DNA from: Caulobacteraceae bacterium
GTDB taxonomy: Bacteria > Pseudomonadota > Alphaproteobacteria > Caulobacterales > Caulobacteraceae
DNA: 64,000 bases
NCBI GenBank assembly: GCA_965284535.1
Contig: OZ260090.1
Coordinates: forward strand, 1,577,916-1,641,915
Direction of reading: 5' to 3'
Every line of letters begins with the position of its first letter. Position 1 is the stretch's first letter. This document shows, piece after piece, positions 9,357-62,848 of this stretch. The notes beneath the pieces were generated by a model. The model made no database searches. It saw only the letters and a program-made list of their open reading frames with translations, and was not told the DNA's origin. A program made the translations under genes and the position numbers.

Positions 9357-9411
9357 GGCCTTGGTGTACGGCTCAGGTGCGGGGAGGGGAAGGGGCAACC
9401 GGGCCTGCTTC

Positions 9412-9470
9412 GCCCCCTCCGTCACAGCGCGAAGCCGCGCCGCGCCACCTCCCCCGGGAGGGGGAGGGGA
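9412..9470. repeat. CIR/REP-like palindromic element (family A)
   Basis: gccccctccg...gccacctccccc-ggga-gggggagg; related copies at 18703, 24118, 27058 and 62751. Confidence 0.75.
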
Positions 9471-9484
9471 CGGATCGTCCTCAA

Positions 9485-18691: not shown

Positions 18692-18702
18692 AGCCGGGCG
18701 TA

Positions 18703-18848
18703 TCCCTCCCCCGAAGTGGGGAGGGACGGCGGAGCGAAGCGGAGCCCGGGTGGGGAACGACAGTCCCGCACTGACGGCTGCCGGCTTCGGAATTCCCCAC
18801 CCTGTCGTCGCTTCGCGCCGACATCCCTCCCCATGAAGGGGAGGGAGA
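18703..18848. repeat. Composite CIR-like element: two inverted family-A arms between terminase and portal
   Basis: tccctcccc-gaagt-ggggaggga...ggggtgggg / ccccaccc...tccctcccc-atgaa-ggggaggga. Confidence 0.8.
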
Positions 18849-20024
18849 ATGATGGAGATTGGCATGATCAACTGGCGACGGCCCTTTGCGGGCCGGCGGC
18901 GCATTTCTGCGCCTGAAACCAAGGACAGCCGGGCGGGCCCGCTGATCGCCCTGACCAGTGGCGGGCGGGCGCGGTGGACACCGAGGGACTATGCGCATCT
19001 GGCCGAGGAGGGGTTCGCGAAGAACGCCGTGGCCTATCGCTGTGTGCGGATGATCGCCGAGGCGGCGGCGTCGACGCCGCTGGTGGTTTTCGCCAAGGGG
19101 GTTCGACGGGACGATCATCCGCTGGCGGCGCTGCTGGGGCGGCCGAACCCGGAGCAGTCCGGGGCGGAGTGGCTGGAGGCGCTGTACGGCGCGCTGCAGA
19201 CGGCGGGGAACGCCTATGCGGAAGCGGTCGGGGAGGGCGCGCCCGAGGAACTTTGGACGCTGCGGCCGGACCGGGTGAAGGTGGTTCCCGGCCGCGACGG
19301 ATGGCCCGAGGCCTGGGAGTATTCCGTCGACGGACGATCGGTCCGGATCGGGCGGGCGACGGACGGATGGTCTCCGGTGATGCAGCTGAAACTGTTTCAT
19401 CCGACCGACGATCACTACGGCTTTTCGCCGCTGGAGGCGGCGGCGTTCGCGATTGATGTTCACAACGCCTCGGGAGCCTGGAACAAGGCGCTGCTGGACA
19501 ATGCGGCGCGGCCGTCGGGGGCGCTGGTCTATGGGGCCAAGGATGGCGAACGGCTGACGGCCGAACAGTTCGAAGGCCTGCGGGCGCAGGTCGAGGACAG
19601 TCACGCCGGGACGATGAACGCCGGGCGGCCGATGATCCTGGAAGGCGGGCTGGACTGGAAGCCGATGAGCTGGACGCCCGCCGACATGGACTTCATCGCG
19701 GGCAAGCATGCGGCGGCGCGGGAGATCGCCTTGGCCTTCGGGGTGCCGCCGCAGCTGCTGGGGATTCCGGGGGACGCCACCTACGCCAACTATCGCGAGG
19801 CCAATGCCGCCTTCTGGCGCGGGACGGTGGTGCCACTGGTGCGCAAGACCGCGGCGGCGCTGACGGGGTGGCTGGGCGGGCGGTTCGCCGGGGTCAGGAT
19901 CGAGGCGGACCTGGACGGGTTGCCCGCGTTGCAGCCCGAGCGCGATGCGCTTTGGGCGCGGCTGAACGCGGCGACCTTCCTGACCGATGATGAGCGACGG
20001 CGGATGGCGGGGGTGGGGGCGTGA
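18849..20024 (+). CDS. GTA portal protein (HK97 family)
   Basis: NAVAYRCVRMIAEAAAS, LRPDRVKVV, FHPTDDHYGFSP, NAARPSGAL, FGVPPQLLGIPGDATYANY. Confidence 0.95.
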   Translation: MMEIGMINWRRPFAGRRRISAPETKDSRAGPLIALTSGGRARWTPRDYAHLAEEGFAKNAVAYRCVRMIAEAAASTPLVVFAKGVRRDDHPLAALLGRPNPEQSGAEWLEALYGALQTAGNAYAEAVGEGAPEELWTLRPDRVKVVPGRDGWPEAWEYSVDGRSVRIGRATDGWSPVMQLKLFHPTDDHYGFSPLEAAAFAIDVHNASGAWNKALLDNAARPSGALVYGAKDGERLTAEQFEGLRAQVEDSHAGTMNAGRPMILEGGLDWKPMSWTPADMDFIAGKHAAAREIALAFGVPPQLLGIPGDATYANYREANAAFWRGTVVPLVRKTAAALTGWLGGRFAGVRIEADLDGLPALQPERDALWARLNAATFLTDDERRRMAGVGA

Positions 20025-20251
20025 TGGAGACGATGCGGAGAATCCCCGTCGCGGTCATCGTGGCACTGGCGGTGCAAACCGTCGGCGGGCTGGTGTGGGC
20101 CGGTGGGGCGGCGGCGCGGATCGCCACGCTGGAGGAACGGGTCGGCGAGCAGCGGCTGGTCGCCGAGCGGCTGGCCCGCCTGGAGGAACAAAGCCTGGCG
20201 ACGCGGGCGGCGGTGGAGCGGATGGAACGGCGGCTGGAGGGCGGAGAGTGA
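20021..20251 (+). CDS. Small GTA protein between portal and protease (g3.5 position)
   Basis: Hydrophobic N-terminus plus coiled coil ERLARLEEQ; overlapping start/stop on both sides. Confidence 0.7.
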   Translation: MMETMRRIPVAVIVALAVQTVGGLVWAGGAAARIATLEERVGEQRLVAERLARLEEQSLATRAAVERMERRLEGGE

Positions 20252-20724
20252 GGGGCGAGAGTCCCGGGGCGAGGGTCGAGGAAGGCGATAGCGGGGTTTC
20301 GACCCGCAACCCTCGACCCGCGACCCTCCGGATCCACGGCTACGCCTCGCTATGGGGTGTCGCGGACCTGAACGGGGATGTGGTGGCGAAGGGCGCGTTC
20401 GCGGCGAGTCTGGCGAGGACCGGGCCCGGGGGCGTGCGGATGCTGCATCAGCATGAGGGTCGGGCGGCGGTCGGGGTCTGGGACCGGATGGTCGAGGACG
20501 AGCGCGGACTGTTTGTCGAGGGCCGGGTCATGGACTGGTCAGCGGAGGCGCGGTTTGCCCAGGCGCTGTCGCGGGCGGGGGCGCTGGACGGGCTGTCGAT
20601 CGGCTTCCGCAGCAGCCGGGCGCGGCGCGAGGGCCGGCTGAGGGTGCTGGTCGAGGTCGAGCTTTGGGAGGTGTCGCTGGTGACGTTTCCGATGCTGCCG
20701 GGGGCCAGGTTCCGGGTGGCCTGA
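20248..20724 (+). CDS. GTA prohead protease (HK97 family)
   Basis: IHGYASLWGVADLNGDVVAKGAF, MLHQH, GLFVEG, DGLSIGF, LWEVSLVTFPM. Confidence 0.92.
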   Translation: MRGESPGARVEEGDSGVSTRNPRPATLRIHGYASLWGVADLNGDVVAKGAFAASLARTGPGGVRMLHQHEGRAAVGVWDRMVEDERGLFVEGRVMDWSAEARFAQALSRAGALDGLSIGFRSSRARREGRLRVLVEVELWEVSLVTFPMLPGARFRVA

Positions 20725-20740: not shown

Positions 20741-21298
20741 TCAGTCCACCGGAGGCAGGTAGTCCGCCGGCAGCGGTATGGCCGGGGTTTCGCCCTGCCA
20801 GTAGATGCTGAGGATCCACCAGCGGGTGCCGTCGTGAAACAGCTGGATGCTGTTGATACCGCGGGCGAAGGGCTCGGGGTCGGAGGCGGCACGGCGGCTG
20901 TCATAGGTCGAAAAGACATGGGCCATGTGGCCGAAACGTTCGAAGCGCCGTGCGATCTCGCGCTCGTGGAAGCCGCGCATCAGGAAGGGTTCGGCGCGAG
21001 CGATATATTCGTCGGGCGTGAGCGGCGTCAGGGTGGCCGGGTCACCGGGCCGACCTGCGACCGGCGTCAGGAGGGCGGCCGGATGGAACAGGCTGCGGAA
21101 GCGGTCCCAGTCGCGGGCCACGCCGGCGTCGCCGGATATGGACTCATAGAGCGCCGCGACAATGGCCTCGGGCGTGGCGACATCGGCGGGGGCGGCGACG
21201 AGGGCCGATGCCGCTGTCACCGGTGAGGGGACCGATTGGGCGAGGACCGGGGTCGCGAACGCGAGGATCGCGGCGGCGGCAAATACCAAAAAACGCAT
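20741..21298 (-). CDS. Secreted NTF2/SnoaL-like protein (cargo)
   Basis: Signal peptide; RDWDRFRSLFHP, FHEREIARRFERFGHMAHVFSTY, GINSIQL...RWWILSIYW. Confidence 0.75.
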   Translation of the reverse strand: MRFLVFAAAAILAFATPVLAQSVPSPVTAASALVAAPADVATPEAIVAALYESISGDAGVARDWDRFRSLFHPAALLTPVAGRPGDPATLTPLTPDEYIARAEPFLMRGFHEREIARRFERFGHMAHVFSTYDSRRAASDPEPFARGINSIQLFHDGTRWWILSIYWQGETPAIPLPADYLPPVD

Positions 21299-21477
21299 CG
21301 AGTTTCCTCTCCGTGTCGGCGGAGTATGACGGGCGGGGCGGGCAACCGCCAGTGCGTAGCGGTCGTGGATTTTGCGATCGCAAACCCGTGTCATGTGACC
21401 CTGTCCGGGTCGGCGGGTTTCGCGCAGGGGGCCGCATGGTATGATTCCCGGAAACCGAAATCTGGTGGAGTCGCTGA

Positions 21478-22356
21478 ATGAAGCGCTGTCTTCTGATCGT
21501 CCTGGGCCTGATGGCCGGGCTGGCCGGGCCGGTCGCGGCGCAGACCCCGGTCGGCGTAAATGCCGAGGTCGAGAACAGCGTCCGGACGCGCAGCCTCGGC
21601 GAGGGTGACTGGCGGGCTTCGGTTGTCGACGGGATCGTTCGCCAAGCCGACGCCATCGTCACGGGCGATCAGGCCCGGCTGCTGATCCGGTTGAGGGATC
21701 AGTCTGAGCTGACCGTCGGGGCCAATGCGTCGCTGAACGTCGACCGGTTCCTGATCGACGCGGAGCCCGATCCGGCCGGTGTGCTGTTCTCGCTGGTGCG
21801 CGGTGCCTTCCGATTTGTGTCTGGAAGTCGGGGGGCGGAACGCGACCGGGTCGCCTTCCGCACGCCCACGGCGACAGTCGGGATCCGCGGAACGATCATC
21901 GAGGCCGCGGTCGGGGCCGATGCGGTGGAACTGCTGCGCGGCGAGACCGTGGATGTCGAGCCGGGGGATGATCCGGAGCAGGCAGCAGTAATCGTGCTGG
22001 TCGAAGGCGAGATCGAGATCGAGGTCGACGGAGTGCGACGCATCGTGCGGGAACCCGGACAGGCGGTGGCCGTGACGGGGCGGCGGGTGTCGCAGCCCTT
22101 CCGCCTGTCGCCGGAGGCCGGACGGCGTCTGGCGGACCGGCTGCCTCCGCGAGAACTGGGCGGACCGGGAGCGGTCACACAGGGGCAGGGGCCGAATCCC
22201 CAGGGTCAGGCTCCGCAAGCTCAGCCGCCGCAAGGTCAGCCGCTTCAGGGGCAAACTCCCCAGGGTCAGGGCAACCAGGCCGGACCATCAGGGCGCGCGC
22301 CTGGCGGGCCGAGCGGGCGGCCGCCCGGGGGCGGGGGCGGCCGACAGCCGGGATAG
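21478..22356 (+). CDS. Secreted FecR-domain protein with Gln/Pro/Gly-rich tail (cargo)
   Basis: Signal peptide; DAIVTGDQARLLIRLRDQSELTVGANASL, GAFRFVSG, TPTATVGIRGT. Confidence 0.8.
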   Translation: MKRCLLIVLGLMAGLAGPVAAQTPVGVNAEVENSVRTRSLGEGDWRASVVDGIVRQADAIVTGDQARLLIRLRDQSELTVGANASLNVDRFLIDAEPDPAGVLFSLVRGAFRFVSGSRGAERDRVAFRTPTATVGIRGTIIEAAVGADAVELLRGETVDVEPGDDPEQAAVIVLVEGEIEIEVDGVRRIVREPGQAVAVTGRRVSQPFRLSPEAGRRLADRLPPRELGGPGAVTQGQGPNPQGQAPQAQPPQGQPLQGQTPQGQGNQAGPSGRAPGGPSGRPPGGGGGRQPG

Positions 22357-22364
22357 GCCAGCCG

Positions 22365-22910
22365 TCAGGTCCGGGCCGAACCCCGGCAGTCGATCCAGTT
22401 CAGGGCGGCGGTCATGCCGTTGAGCGAGAAATAGGCTTCGGCCGGTCCGTCGGTGGAGGGGTAGTTCCAGCGCGCGATGCGCTGGCGGCGCAGGCCCGAG
22501 ACGAGGGAGCGGGTCAGGATCGGGTCACTGACGCGGAACTCGTTCGAACCCGGTGAGGTCGGCACCATCCATGGACCGGGATCAACGGTCTGACCGGGCG
22601 TGGTGAAACTCATGGGGCCGGTGACAGGCATGGGGTCGGCCGCGGCGAGCTCGACGAGGTGGTCGGCGCCGGGGCTGGGGCGGGCGACACGCAGTTGTTG
22701 ACGCCAGGCGGCCTGACCCGTCGGATCGGGCAGGGCGACGACGGCGGAGCAATAGCCGTCCGGTCGGCAGGCGGCGAGGGTGTCGCCGAAATAGGCCCGG
22801 GTCTCGCCGAAACGCATGTGGGTTTCAGCCCCGCAGCGATCCGTGGCCTGGACGGCACCGGCGGACAGCAGGACGAAGGCGGTGGTCGCCGTGGCGAGCA
22901 GTCTGGACAT
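22365..22910 (-). CDS. Secreted hypothetical protein (cargo)
   Basis: Signal peptide AVQA-TD; FGDTLAACRPDGYCSA; FSLNGMTAALNWID. Confidence 0.65.
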   Translation of the reverse strand: MSRLLATATTAFVLLSAGAVQATDRCGAETHMRFGETRAYFGDTLAACRPDGYCSAVVALPDPTGQAAWRQQLRVARPSPGADHLVELAAADPMPVTGPMSFTTPGQTVDPGPWMVPTSPGSNEFRVSDPILTRSLVSGLRRQRIARWNYPSTDGPAEAYFSLNGMTAALNWIDCRGSART

Positions 22911-22990
22911 CGGCGCAATCCCAAGCTTGACCATGGTTAACGCTGATCACGCCGTTCGGTGAGTGTCAATCATGCGCAACTTCAAGGACA

Positions 22991-23797
22991 TCATCGCTGA
23001 GGCGGGCGATACTCGTACCTGCCCAGCCCGCGGGTCGCCCGTGTGAGGGCGGCGAGGATCTTCGGCTTGTGCAGCATCCGTCCAAGGAAGATGGCGAGGA
23101 AGACGGCGAAGAACAGCGAGAAGCGGAAGATCACCACGGCGAGGAATGAGACGACGGCGATGATGACCCAGAGGCCGATGATGACGGATGTCTGGTCTTC
23201 CTGGTCTGGCTCGCCCTCGACTTCTGTCTGTTCGGAGACGGGAGTGACCTTGCCGAACAGGACGTCGACCAGGGTCTGGGCCCCGGGGTCCTGGACCTTC
23301 TGAAGGGGGCCGACATTGGCCAGGCGCGGTTCGACCGGAAGGTCCGGCTCGTGATCGGTGTGCCGGTGGAGGTCCAGCAGGGGGCTGGGCTGCATCAGGG
23401 CGGCGGGGTCGAAGGCGATGGAGTCGCCGTGTTTGTCGATGGTGAAGACCTGATCGTAGGGGACCCGGGCGAAGTCGATGGCGCGGGTGTCCTGACCATA
23501 GGCGTCGCCGTGCAGGAACAGCAGCCGGCCCTGTCGAAGTTCGGCCTGGAAGGCGACCGGGTCCGGCAGATCACCGACCATGGCGTGGACCGTGCCGAAG
23601 CGGCCGGTCGGGCTGGTCAGGGGCGGCGGGCGGTCGCGGTCGACGATCAGTTCGGTCAACAGGCCGGAGCCGGTATTGCGGCGGGAGCCGGGCAGGGACT
23701 CCGCGAACTGGCCCGCGAGGTCCGGCGCGATGTCGCGCAGGTCCCAGGCGAGGGCGTCGAGGACGTCGGATTCGAGGGGGGTGAAGCGGGTGCTCAC
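22991..23797 (-). CDS. Hypothetical membrane protein (cargo)
   Basis: 268-aa ORF with host-like codon use and two C-terminal TM helices. Confidence 0.7.
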   Translation of the reverse strand: MSTRFTPLESDVLDALAWDLRDIAPDLAGQFAESLPGSRRNTGSGLLTELIVDRDRPPPLTSPTGRFGTVHAMVGDLPDPVAFQAELRQGRLLFLHGDAYGQDTRAIDFARVPYDQVFTIDKHGDSIAFDPAALMQPSPLLDLHRHTDHEPDLPVEPRLANVGPLQKVQDPGAQTLVDVLFGKVTPVSEQTEVEGEPDQEDQTSVIIGLWVIIAVVSFLAVVIFRFSLFFAVFLAIFLGRMLHKPKILAALTRATRGLGRYEYRPPQR

Positions 23798-23883: not shown

Positions 23884-25119
23884 ATGAAAGAGACCAAAAC
23901 CGTCTCGGGCACGCCCGAGGCGCGCGCCGCCATGCATGAAATGATGGCGGCGTTCGAGGCGTTCAAAGGGGCCAATGACGCCCGGCTGGACGAGATCGAG
24001 CGCAAGAGCTCGGTGGACGCGTTGCTGGAGGAGAAGGTGGCGCGGATCGATCAGGCGGTCGGGGCGGCGCAGGCGCGGCTGGACCGGGTGGTGAGCGAGG
24101 GCAGGCGGCCGGAACTGGCCCCCTCCGGCGGCTTCGCCGCCACCTCCCCCATGAAGGGGGAGGAGAAGTCGGCGTTCGACGGCTATCTGAAGACCGGCGC
24201 TTCGTTCGGGTTGGAGCTGAAGGCGGGGCTTTCGACGGCGTCGAACTCGGCCGGCTATGTGGTGCCGGAACAGACCGAGCGGGCCATCGAGAGACGCTTG
24301 ATGGCGGGGTCGCCGATGCGCGAGATCGCCACGGTGCGGACGGTCGGCGCGGGGGTGTTCAGAAAGCCGGTGTCGACGGCGGGCGTGGCCTCGGGCTGGG
24401 TGGCCGAGACGGCGGCGCGGCCGGAGACGGATCCGGCGACCCTGGCCTTGCTGGAGTTTCCGTCGGCCGATCTCTACGCCAATCCGGCGGCGACCCAGTC
24501 GCTGCTGGACGACGCCCTGATCGATCTGGACGAATGGCTGGCGGCCGAGGTCGAGGACGCCTTCGCGGCGCAGGAGACCCAGGCCTTCGTCACCGGCGAC
24601 GGGGTCAACAAGCCGAAGGGCTTCCTGGACTATGACATCGTCGCCGAGGCGGACCATGCGTGGGGCGAGATCGGCTATGTCGCCTCGGGCGCGGCAGGTG
24701 CGTTCGCCTCTACCAGCCCGACCGATCGGCTGATCGACCTGGTCTATGCGCCCAAGGCCCAGTACCGGCCGAACGGGCGGTTCGTGATGAACCGCAAGAC
24801 GGTCTCGGCGGTGCGGAAGTTCAAGGACGCCGACGGCAACTACATCTGGCAGCCGGCGCAGCGGGCGGGCGAGACGGCCAGCCTGCTGGGCTATCGCGTG
24901 ACCGAGATCGAGACCATGCCGGACATCGCCGCCGACAGCGCGGCCATCGCCTTCGGCGACTTCCAGCGCGGCTATCTGATCGTGGATCGCGCGGGGGTGC
25001 GGGTGTTGAGGGACCCGTATTCGGCCAAGCCCTATGTGCTGTTCTACACGACCAAGCGCGTGGGCGGCGGGGTGCAGAACTTTGATGCGATCAAGGTGAT
25101 GAAGTTCAGCGCGACGTAG
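23884..25119 (+). CDS. GTA major capsid protein (HK97 fold)
   Basis: AGYVVPEQTER, SPMREIATV, WVAETAARPET, DGVNKPKGFL, RDPYSAKPYVLFYTTKRVGG. Confidence 0.97.
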   Translation: MKETKTVSGTPEARAAMHEMMAAFEAFKGANDARLDEIERKSSVDALLEEKVARIDQAVGAAQARLDRVVSEGRRPELAPSGGFAATSPMKGEEKSAFDGYLKTGASFGLELKAGLSTASNSAGYVVPEQTERAIERRLMAGSPMREIATVRTVGAGVFRKPVSTAGVASGWVAETAARPETDPATLALLEFPSADLYANPAATQSLLDDALIDLDEWLAAEVEDAFAAQETQAFVTGDGVNKPKGFLDYDIVAEADHAWGEIGYVASGAAGAFASTSPTDRLIDLVYAPKAQYRPNGRFVMNRKTVSAVRKFKDADGNYIWQPAQRAGETASLLGYRVTEIETMPDIAADSAAIAFGDFQRGYLIVDRAGVRVLRDPYSAKPYVLFYTTKRVGGGVQNFDAIKVMKFSAT

Positions 25120-25122
25120 TCG

Positions 25123-25250
25123 CGCAGTGGCGAGTGGTTAGTGGCGAGTGGCGGGTAATGCCGCTCGCCGCTGACTTCGATGTGAAACGGCGACGGACGA
25201 AGACTGGCCCGGCGATCACTCGCCGCTCGCCACTCGTCACCCGCCACTAC
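25123..25250. repeat. Heptamer-based palindromic repeat (family B) after the capsid gene
   Basis: agtggcgagtggttagtggcgagtggcggg ... cactcgccgctcgccactcgtcacccgccactac. Confidence 0.75.
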
Positions 25251-25835: not shown

Positions 25836-26239
25836 GCGCGCATGAGCTGGCCTTGCAGAAGGCGCTGATCGCGCATCTGAGGGCGGATGTGGCGTTGCAG
25901 GCGCTGCTGGGCGATCCGGCGCGGGTGTGGGATGCGGCACCGCCGGATCCGGTGTTTCCGCATCTGCTGACCGGTCGCTGCGAGAGCCGGTCGGTGGGTG
26001 CCGATGGAGGCGGGATTGAGCAGGCGCTGACCCTGACCGTCGTGTCGCGCTTTCGCGGAACCGAGGAGGCCAGGGCGGTGCTGGCGGCGGTTCGGTTGAG
26101 CCTGAATGACGCCGAGCTGGAGGCTGACGGGGTGCGGGCGGTGAGCCTGAGGGTCTCGTTCGCGGACGTGTTTCCGAGCGCCGACGGGGCGCGGACGTTT
26201 GCGGTGCTGCGGGTGCGCGCCGTGACGGAAGAGGGGTGA
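25832..26239 (+). CDS. GTA tail terminator (DUF3168)
   Basis: ELALQKALIAHLRAD...RVWDAAP...EARAVLAAVRLSL...VLRVRAVTE; ATGA overlap. Confidence 0.88.
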   Translation: MSAHELALQKALIAHLRADVALQALLGDPARVWDAAPPDPVFPHLLTGRCESRSVGADGGGIEQALTLTVVSRFRGTEEARAVLAAVRLSLNDAELEADGVRAVSLRVSFADVFPSADGARTFAVLRVRAVTEEG

Positions 26240-26302
26240 TTGGTGGTTGGTAGTTGGTCGGGGCGTGTTCGGCGATCACCATCCACCAATCACCAGCCAC
26301 CC
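26235..26302. repeat. Heptamer-based palindromic repeat (family B) before the major tail gene
   Basis: ggtgattggtggttggtagttgg ... ccatccaccaatcaccagccacc. Confidence 0.7.
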
Positions 26303-26744: not shown

Positions 26745-27040
26745 TGGCGCCCAATGGCGCGCGGGGCGAGGTGGTCGCCATGCTGGCGGGAGCCGAGCGG
26801 CGGCTGTGCCTGACGCTCGGAGCACTGGCGGAGATCGAGACGGGGCTGGGGCTGGAGGGATTGGCCGGGCTGGCGGAGCGGATGCGGGCGTTGTCGGCGC
26901 GGGATCTGACGGTGGTGCTGGCGGCCCTTCTTCGGGGCGGGGGCGAGCGGGGGCTGGCGGCTGAGCTGGCCACGGCGGCTGTCGATCCGCGCGAGGCGGC
27001 GGAGGCAATGGCCAGGGCGTTTGCGGCGGCGGCGGGGTGA
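26741..27040 (+). CDS. GTA-gp10 tail assembly chaperone
   Basis: NGARGEV, LCLTLGALAEIE. Confidence 0.88.
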   Translation: MMAPNGARGEVVAMLAGAERRLCLTLGALAEIETGLGLEGLAGLAERMRALSARDLTVVLAALLRGGGERGLAAELATAAVDPREAAEAMARAFAAAAG

Positions 27041-27282
27041 GGGTGGAGATGGGGGATGCGCCCCTCCACCACACTTCGTGCGGTCCTCCTCCCCATTCCA
27101 TGGGGAGGAGACTGGTTTGGGGCGAGATGCTGCGGACGGCGGCGAGGCTGGGCGTGGGGCCGGAGGGGTTCTGGCGGCTGTCGTTGCGGGAGTGGCGGAT
27201 GCTGACGGAACGGCCGGACGGTGTGGCACCGTTGCGGCGATCTGAGTTTGAGCGGATGGCGGAGGCGTGGCCGGATGACTGA
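27037..27282 (+). CDS. GTA tail assembly chaperone 2 (g10.1) with a repeat in its 5' part
   Basis: WGEMLRTAARLGVGPEGFWRLSLREWRML...MAEAWPD. Confidence 0.8.
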   Translation: MRVEMGDAPLHHTSCGPPPHSMGRRLVWGEMLRTAARLGVGPEGFWRLSLREWRMLTERPDGVAPLRRSEFERMAEAWPDD

Positions 27283-62523: not shown

Positions 62524-62692
62524 GGCGGCGGGTCCTGCTGCGGCTCTCGTCGAAGGCAACATTTCCTTGCGACCTTAATTCACTCAAAGGGATCTGTCCC
62601 TGTTTGGGCTCGAGGGCCCGGGCACACGGAGCCCACCTGGCTACCCAGGTCGAGAGGATTTAAACGCCCTTCACGGTTCTTGCGGCGCCGCC
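62524..62692 (+). ncRNA. ssrS: 6S RNA (ends approximate)
   Basis: Between zapA and ygfA as in many proteobacteria; ggcggcg/cgccgcc termini; internal aaagggatctgtccctg...cccgggcacacggagcccacc resembles alphaproteobacterial 6S. Confidence 0.65.
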
Positions 62693-62750
62693 AACCTTTC
62701 TCCCTTTTGCGCTATCCGGCTAGTGGAGCCTCGCCGCCTGGGCGCGGGCG

Positions 62751-62802
62751 TCTCCTCCCCGCGTGTGGGGAGGGGGACCATCGGAAGGATGGTGGAGGGG
62801 CG
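62751..62802. repeat. Family A palindromic repeat between ssrS and ygfA
   Basis: Reverse complement cgcccctccacca...ggtccccctcccca...ggggaggaga closely matches the 27058 copy. Confidence 0.78.
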
Positions 62803-62848
62803 AAACGGCGTGCTCGCTGCCCTTGTTTCAATAGGCTAGGTCTCTCCC

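Follow-up and report, generated by a model that had tools for sequence, protein, structure and literature searches.

An in-frame repeat unit in the major capsid gene of a gene transfer agent

The stretch analyzed here (the window; 64,000 nucleotides, G000:C1:1577916-1641915 of a complete, single-contig Caulobacteraceae genome of 2.915 Mb and 67.4% GC) contains the major capsid gene of a gene transfer agent (GTA), and within this gene a short repeat unit with two hairpins is read in frame. The capsid gene (23884..25119, + strand) encodes a protein of 411 amino acids with the HK97 fold and is a homologue of RcGTA g5, as judged from the open reading frame (ORF), the PDB and Pfam; in a phmmer comparison the ORF matched Rcc01687 of PDB 6TB9 with E=1.2e-88. 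The Pfam domain Phage_capsid (PF05065) spans residues 124-408 of the 411, after an N-terminal extension of ~100 residues, and it is in this extension that a solo unit of the repeat is found (24118..24168, + strand). The unit is 51 bases long and encodes residues 79-95 of the protein, A79-PSGGFAATSPMKGEE-K95 (peptide APSGGFAATSPMKGEEK). An original prediction, made from the letters of the window, had pointed to a palindromic repeat read in frame at 24118-24165, and the quoted sequence was found there as described: read in the frame of ORF 23884..25119, it codes for APSGGFAATSPMKGE, with RRPEL before it and EKSAFDGY after it. Brevundimonas loci are ~80% nucleotide-identical to the studied genome across most of their 8 kb, and this degree of identity assigns the genome to Brevundimonas or to a close neighbor of that genus.

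The unit opens with a 5' C-rich box, GCCCCCTCC (24118..24126, + strand), which corresponds to the family consensus GCCCCTCC and contains the CCCCTCC columns that are invariant in the alignment of copies. Hairpin 1, GGCGGC/TTC/GCCGCC (24127..24141, + strand), appears in both RNA and DNA folds, and its stem differs among species yet stays complementary. It is separated by a single A from hairpin 2, CCTCCCCC/ATGAA/GGGGGAGG (24143..24163, + strand), which is supported by the folds and by pattern counts in shuffled controls; the 3' arm of hairpin 2 is Shine-Dalgarno-like (GGAGG) and the 5' arm is anti-Shine-Dalgarno-like (CCTCC). The conserved tail AGAAG closes the unit, ending at 24168. The RNA fold of the segment consists of exactly these two hairpins (–32.2 kcal/mol, z=–2.5), and the DNA fold consists of the same two (–17.7 kcal/mol, z=–2.7).

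In the capsid precursor, residues 1-76 form a conserved N-terminal region, after which comes the linker that holds the unit. The predicted delta (scaffolding) domain comprises residues 1-113 (23884..24222, + strand); it lies N-terminal of the Pfam capsid domain and ends at the predicted cleavage ELK|AGL, with the codon of K113, the last residue before that site, at 24220-24222. In HK97 the maturation cleavage falls at K103|S104, and ELK-AGLSTASNSAGYVVP (K113/A114) aligns with RcGTA EGK-ALNSAVAAEGGYLV; because of this analogy and this alignment, the maturation cleavage is predicted to fall at ELK|AGL. The unit (79-95) precedes both the Pfam capsid domain and the predicted site, in the tail of the delta domain. 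An ORF with a Caudovirus prohead serine protease S78 domain (19987..20724, + strand; Pfam PF04586, E=1.6e-22) is present in the same cluster, and by analogy with related capsids its product would be expected to remove the delta domain, the unit included. The S78 domain covers residues 114-242 of a 245-residue frame, and therefore the true start probably lies well downstream of 19987. The original prediction had placed the repeat in a scaffold-like region that HK97-type proteases remove; the location in the delta tail stands, an S78 gene is present, and the removal itself is predicted from homology. A literature search found no statement on the mature N-terminus of the RcGTA capsid, and the RcGTA structure paper gives no cleavage site.

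The capsid segment is a member of a dispersed repeat family

To define the family, copies were first collected with regular expressions, and 20 of them were then aligned. Its unit is ~52 nt long (range 48-57 nt) and has the form GCCCCTCC / ACCAYGC-TTCG-GCRTGGT / CCCCCTCCCC / loop / GGGGAGGAGAC. In the 20 canonical copies the boxes are invariant, while hairpin 1 varies in a compensatory manner (ACCACGC, ACCATGC, ACCACCC, ACCATCC, ACCGC). The family consensus is free of stop codons in all six frames. A search with nhmmer gave ~43 solid copies in the studied genome. A covariance model, R1, was built from 20 other genomic copies with the capsid copy left out, and yielded 56 matches in the studied genome, 20-85 in most genomes of the genus and as few as 1-3 in a few of them.

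Scored against R1, the capsid copy (match 24117-24169) reached 39.1 bits with E=2.1e-7 over all 57 model positions and both hairpins, the third-best match in the window behind those at 27058-27114 and 62748-62803. Thus the family membership, and the significant similarity to intergenic copies on which the original prediction relied, were both upheld. The canonical hairpin 1 (ACCAYGC-TTCG-GCRTGGT) is not present in the capsid copy, which has GGCGGC-TTC-GCCGCC in its place; it represents a sub-type with the ACCTCCCCC arm that is intergenic in relatives, where it has GTCGGC/GCCGAC stems, and that occurs in the window also at 9410..9473 (+ strand). This intergenic relative has the same box, the CCACCTCCCCC arm and a longer hairpin 1, and scores 21.2 bits with R1. 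The strings said to be common to the two copies are real (gccccctccg at 9412 and gccacctccccc at 9444). A further shared hairpin, ctcccc-atgaa-ggggag, is also real, though it had been assigned to 18703 and lies at 18827-18843, where it forms the right arm of the 18703-18848 composite.

At 67% GC, runs of C and G are common in this genome, and a GC-rich, Pro/Gly-rich hypervariable linker might come to resemble such a repeat by chance, or the segment might be an assembly artefact. Such an origin is extremely improbable. The pattern CTCCCC-N2-10-GGGGAG was observed six times in the window where 0.26 were expected, and across the hairpin patterns the shuffled controls gave expectations of just 0.04-0.26 matches. 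The R1 match is full-length and includes both hairpins (E=2e-7). In ~50 congeners the capsid copies were scored by R1 at 21-68 bits, with canonical copies of 60-68 bits at the same site in other species, while in 45 empty alleles R1 gave no match at the main capsid site. The genome being a single complete contig speaks against an assembly artefact. Chance resemblance is thus effectively refuted, and the capsid segment is a true member of the dispersed family.

Alleles of the capsid linker across the genus

A capsid orthologue is present in 123 of 151 genomes, and for comparison we used 117 capsid genes of the genus, one genome per species. At the main capsid site 53 of these genes are empty, 47 hold an intact two-hairpin unit and 17 hold decayed remnants, the three classes including a few uncertain assignments. 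The original prediction had suggested an alignment of capsid genes from close relatives for empty sites, and the 53 empty genes are empty at the same spot. Their linker does not align residue for residue with the repeat: it differs in sequence and is shorter. It reads RRPxIGG-EPxEPASAP-EAKAA and, because it resembles the linker of other families of the order, the short AP-EAKAA form is taken as the ancestral empty state. With a unit, the linker measures 57-105 nt, versus ~45-51 nt when empty.

Among the intact units, about a dozen self-complementary variants of the hairpin-1 stem are found, of 4-7 bp (they include ACCGC, GGCGGC, ACCAC, ACCCC, CCCGGCC, TCGGCC, CTCGGCC, CGGCGC, CGGCC and CGGC), together with 24 arm-and-loop variants of hairpin 2. 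The reading frame, in which CCC TCC gives Pro-Ser, is common to 42 of 44 intact copies. Three alleles preserve the flanks of the unit: G009 keeps the full 11-residue upstream spacer and then reads AP-S...GE, and in G129 and G060 EAKAA is intact immediately after the unit. Because of these alleles the insertion junction would be AP|EAK, and the DNA at this junction (GCGCCC|GAGGCGAAG) appears to resemble both ends of the unit. No target-site duplication was found at the capsid site, and most other unit alleles are without part of the upstream spacer.

A second in-frame site lies 20 residues downstream, at ~300-350 nt of the gene, in three basal species (G068, G137 and G121; loci L252-L254). All three are empty at the main site, and in them the unit directly precedes LEVK|AGL, the motif at which cleavage is predicted. 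Two of the three, the sister species G137 and G121, hold different variants at this second site within identical flanks. In the 64 element-bearing genes every in-gene R1 match falls in the delta tail, with none in the ~900 nt of the mature body, which bears out the suggestion of a tolerant site. In the 45 empty-site genes R1 found just these three second-site matches and one weak match (12.5 bits, E=0.36). The original prediction had framed the capsid copy as a single insertion. That it is an insertion holds; what had been overlooked is that the delta-tail linker is a repeated landing and swapping site, a hot spot of fast turnover throughout the genus.

Turnover, synonymous conservation and decay

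Turnover was followed on a maximum-likelihood tree of the same capsid gene with the linker masked, a tree that recombination may affect. Empty or element-bearing status requires at least 13 changes on this gene tree, versus a mean of 38 with shuffled labels. The type of hairpin 1 requires at least 33 changes versus a mean of 42.6 with shuffled labels, and for this reason has hardly any coupling to phylogeny. Different types are found within sister pairs whose bootstrap support is 97-100% (G005/G078, G042/G163, G047/G075 and G051/G129), and occupancy differs within other groupings that are well supported (G001/G069, and G018 with G134 and G113). From the reading of the linker sequences, G163 appears to have the upstream spacer and the loop of one type together with a hairpin 1 that belongs to a different type. 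The repeats are dynamic between genes as well: the intergenic region that holds a paired copy at G000:C1 ~2362730-2362875 is ~150 bp in the studied genome and in G124, and ~430-1640 bp in the orthologous regions of seven other close relatives. This spread, from ~150 bp to 1.6 kb among eight close relatives, indicates that repeats are gained or lost rapidly at intergenic loci.

Third positions at synonymous sites were compared between species of the same type. Within the unit they are 94.7% identical for the ACCGC type and 96.7% for the GGCGGC type, whereas in the rest of the same genes they are 70.4% and 76.4% identical, respectively. Because synonymous sites are so much more identical than in the rest of the gene, the unit is subject either to constraint on its DNA or RNA or to repeated re-homogenization, like its intergenic relatives. 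The first of these possibilities would make the unit a domesticated cis-acting module, in which selection for GTA production keeps the hairpins and the sequestered GGAGG for what they do in the mRNA of the capsid: they might, for instance, make ribosomes pause between the delta domain and the body, serve as an RNase or stability site, or bind a conserved factor. The contrast of 95-97% in the unit with 70-76% gene-wide is what such a module would predict, as are a hairpin 1 that is perfectly complementary in most variants, a stable RNA fold (–32.2 kcal/mol, z=–2.5), and the recurrence of units at two delta-tail sites and in a g15-like gene of G019 and G053. However, intergenic copies are equally conserved, so that a link to the capsid is not required, and 53 of the 117 species are without the unit at the main site and 17 have it in decayed form, with their capsid ORFs intact. 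We consider a cis-acting role unlikely.

Decay has proceeded both by deletion, in G023, G132 and G084, which are without hairpin 2, and by substitution, in G021 and G014. Because 17 decayed alleles exist, the unit is not essential. The original prediction had spoken of a selfish repeat domesticated in a virion protein, and the second part of that description was not borne out: 53 of 117 congeners manage without the unit, 17 have let it decay, and the peptide differs widely among species.

One allele behaves differently. Compared with G049, G107 (L175) has nine synonymous and one non-synonymous codon changes in the unit, which together remove both hairpins yet keep the 17-residue peptide SPSAASRSPSPFHGEEK. 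Between these two species dS is 1.7 in the unit versus 0.48 gene-wide, and the gene-wide dN/dS (the ratio of non-synonymous to synonymous divergence) is 0.067. The loss of both hairpins through synonymous change is a further point against a cis-acting module. The retention of SPSAASRSPSPFHGEEK through these changes would suit an exaptation at the level of the protein, in which a Ser/Pro/Gly-rich spacer peptide, through its length or flexibility, tunes how the delta domain functions or how readily the protease reaches the cleavage site nearby. Such a role would also fit the frame shared by 42 of 44 intact copies, though this frame may be merely the least harmful of the three; the loss of most of the upstream spacer from the usual unit allele, with total linker length held at 57-105 nt; and the position of the second site, which abuts the predicted cleavage site. 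Peptides nevertheless diverge greatly among species (PSGGFAATSPMKGE, PSTASRSPSPFHGE and PSVSAFGRSTSPDGGG), and empty and deleted alleles are common, and we regard exaptation of the peptide as very unlikely.

A probable passenger repeat in a disposable linker

The reading that we favor, and consider probable, is that the capsid unit is a passenger repeat of the kind represented by repetitive extragenic palindromic (REP) sequences and Rickettsia palindromic elements (RPEs): a disposable linker tolerates it, and a process acting on the whole family keeps it uniform. One solo copy of a structured DNA repeat, old and dispersed, would have integrated in frame at AP|EAK, in the flexible tail of the delta domain. 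Its survival there could be attributed to four properties: the family consensus is stop-free in all six frames, the frame used gives a flexible peptide rich in Ser, Pro, Gly and Glu, the linker would have no fold to disrupt, and the S78 prohead protease is predicted to cut away the whole region ahead of mature capsid formation. Its tolerance would thus follow from an open frame, a flexible encoded peptide and a position in a linker that is predicted to be discarded at maturation. Once resident, the capsid unit seems to behave like the intergenic copies, with its synonymous sites kept or re-homogenized and its hairpin-1 variants swapped between close species. Nucleotide uniformity together with the swapping of variants points to a copying process that acts across the family. 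As for the mechanism of replacement, the likeliest routes would be replacement from other copies in the genome, or short-tract allelic recombination between species.

Several observations weigh against this reading. The conservation of synonymous sites could reflect a function of the hairpins in the capsid mRNA or DNA, and the G107 allele hints at a protein-level constraint once the peptide is resident. In many species the unit replaces most of the ancestral spacer, and a simple insertion does not fit every allele. The cleavage site, and hence the removal of the peptide, is predicted through homology. Finally, no mobilizing enzyme was found: the complete genome is without a Y1/RAYT transposase. 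Mobility driven by a REP-associated tyrosine transposase (RAYT) was accordingly rejected for this genome, in which a search for Y1_Tnp (PF01797) returned zero matches while control genomes do match.

A more far-reaching version can be formulated, in which the unit is an ancient structured module shared across several alphaproteobacterial orders, whose copies a conserved putative host factor installs, overwrites and homogenizes, and for which the capsid delta tail is a preferred docking site that also tunes the translation or processing of the capsid. This version appears to us improbable. Among the matches listed, many members of the Sphingomonadales, Caulobacterales and Hyphomicrobiales contain the core, CCCCTCCACC-N3-11-GGTCCCCCTCCCC, in exact form.

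The loop of hairpin 2 contains an ATG (M89), which was considered as an internal start that would give a capsid without the delta domain. This was rejected: the loop and its ATG vary among variants, and no Shine-Dalgarno motif was seen in the bases just upstream.

Comparison with known systems

Rickettsia is the best-known source of ‘selfish’ palindromic repeats that are read in frame. Like the unit described here, the RPEs (Ogata et al. 2000, as cited in PMC3184786) are small alphaproteobacterial palindromes, found between genes and in frame inside intact genes, where they add a peptide at a tolerant place, and they contain no transposase. Compared by description only, the unit is smaller (48-57 nt as opposed to ~105-146 bp); RPEs are described in Rickettsia, whereas the core of the unit is found exactly in three free-living orders (among the matches listed); and at the capsid site many swapped variants and conservation of synonymous sites are seen.

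The likeness to REPs and their paired form, REPINs, consists in short, GC-rich, imperfect palindromes in tens of copies, mostly intergenic, with inverted pairs and compensatory stems. The family differs from these in having two hairpins and conserved single-stranded boxes in each unit, and the studied genome differs from REP/REPIN-RAYT systems in being without a Y1_Tnp/RAYT gene. Coding copies are unusual for REPs.

In-frame insertions of MITEs (miniature transposable elements with inverted repeats) and other repeats are represented by BRE in Bordetella, RUP/SPRITE in pneumococcus and the QMITEs of Coxiella (PMC3184786, PMC5896051). These too are non-autonomous repeats fused inside ORFs without breaking them. 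The capsid unit differs in that it has no target-site duplication, and no parent insertion sequence was identified for it, no search for one having been made. Structured intergenic repeats of Caulobacter and other Alphaproteobacteria are also known as Caulobacter intergenic repeats (CIRs; Chen and Shapiro 2003), as listed in PMC3184786. By description only, the paired form of the present family (~145 bp) is of similar size. CIRs are reportedly ~110-bp structured repeats with a GANTC methylation site in the loop. No GANTC was noticed in the units inspected, for which no dedicated scan was made.

On the side of the host protein, the capsid resembles HK97 gp5 and RcGTA g5 in its ~100-residue N-terminal scaffolding domain, the junction of Lys with a small residue, the capsid fold and the prohead protease gene in the cluster; we know of no repeat element reported in the delta domains of HK97 gp5 or RcGTA g5. 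An Rfam scan of the window returned 6S RNA only and no family for the repeat unit. A full-text literature search, which covered the core sequence as well as palindromic repeats read in frame in Alphaproteobacteria or Caulobacter, returned no description of the repeat family.

The phenomenon as such is known, and what the capsid case adds is the host gene, two hot spots, a dense set of natural alleles and the conservation of synonymous sites. The same phenomenon is thereby seen in free-living Caulobacterales, inside a gene for a GTA virion protein and with far denser comparative data. The alleles amount to a natural experiment on how an HK97-type capsid precursor tolerates extra peptide, in which only the delta tail does so, and the family offers a system for asking how REP-like repeats without RAYT spread and stay uniform. 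Since the linker is non-homologous between close relatives, caution is called for in the annotation and phylogenetics of GTA capsids.

Copies elsewhere in the genome and the window

The original prediction had proposed a census of coding copies, and in the studied genome a well-scoring coding frame reads through just three of ~43 copies, leaving ~40 that are not translated through a coding frame. The three are in the capsid gene, a DnaE2-like polymerase and an Lhr-like helicase, and all sit at or past a domain boundary. The DnaE2-like polymerase (G000:C1:401604-405155, – strand) has hairpin 2 alone, read as VSSPRSGEGD, inside the Pfam PHP match at its C-terminal end. The Lhr-like helicase (G000:C1:523025-525694, – strand) has GPSTASRSPYPLHGEET plus an inverted second unit in head-to-head orientation, and this pair is located between the two RecA-like domains (DEAD and Helicase_C). 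Outside the studied genome, G019 (L162, C4 ~78443-78521) holds two tandem units of the GTCGGC sub-type in frame and G053 (L153) holds one, in the context ...EVSR-APSVGFAATSPTGGGL-APSVGSADTSPSGGGS-APAYGGTPSDE... and with the Pro-Ser frame that the capsid copies also use. Judged by the flanking peptide, the host gene is taken to be GTA g15-like.

Inverted pairs of units are frequent. The paired form is ~145 bp long and its units end in GTCTCCTCCCC...GGGGAGGAGAC, the inverted ends being confined to this form. A second, related family, GCCGAGCCCTCCCCACCC / hairpin / CCCTCCCCC-GGA-GGGGGAGGGAGAA, forms pairs ~120 bp apart, like the composite at 18698..18851 (no strand assigned), in which pair analysis and an R1 match identified, in the gap on the upstream side of the portal gene, two related units in inverted orientation. 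In the right unit GGGGAGGGAGA, which contains GGAGG, directly precedes the portal ATG at 18849, and this unit probably supplies the portal ribosome-binding site, sequestered in a hairpin. As a general role for the units, that of a portable ribosome-binding site was rejected: a good ORF start follows GGAGG by 2-16 nt in six of 71 units versus two of 71 in the control. For the portal gene and a handful of others this role nonetheless fits.

Two canonical units score highest in the window. The first (27058..27114, + strand; 73.7 bits) lies between the stop codon of the tail chaperone (27040) and the Phage_TAC_6 domain of ORF 27037..27282, which begins at residue 28. This unit is open in the frame of ORF 27037..27282 (PLHHTSCGPPPHSMGRR), and the loop of its hairpin 2 includes an ATG. 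The second (62748..62803, – strand; 68.5 bits) lies ~55 nt downstream of the 6S RNA gene and on the opposite strand; that gene is at 62532-62692 (Rfam RF00013, 52.6 bits).

The neighbors of the capsid gene encode the portal, the S78 prohead protease, a connector, the tail tube and a TAC_6 tail chaperone; for the tape-measure gene of the cluster there was a weak, sub-threshold family match only. This RcGTA-like head-tail cluster, homologous to RcGTA g3-g11, is conserved across the genus. Between the protease and capsid genes, at 20741-23797, four ORFs on mixed strands, one of them FecR-like and three without a Pfam match, split the head module. At 25126-25248, between the capsid gene and that of the connector, stands a repeat of another type, with tandem heptamer-like units (AGTGGCG...); it forms 34-nt inverted arms 55 nt apart, and a similar one is found at 26235-26294.

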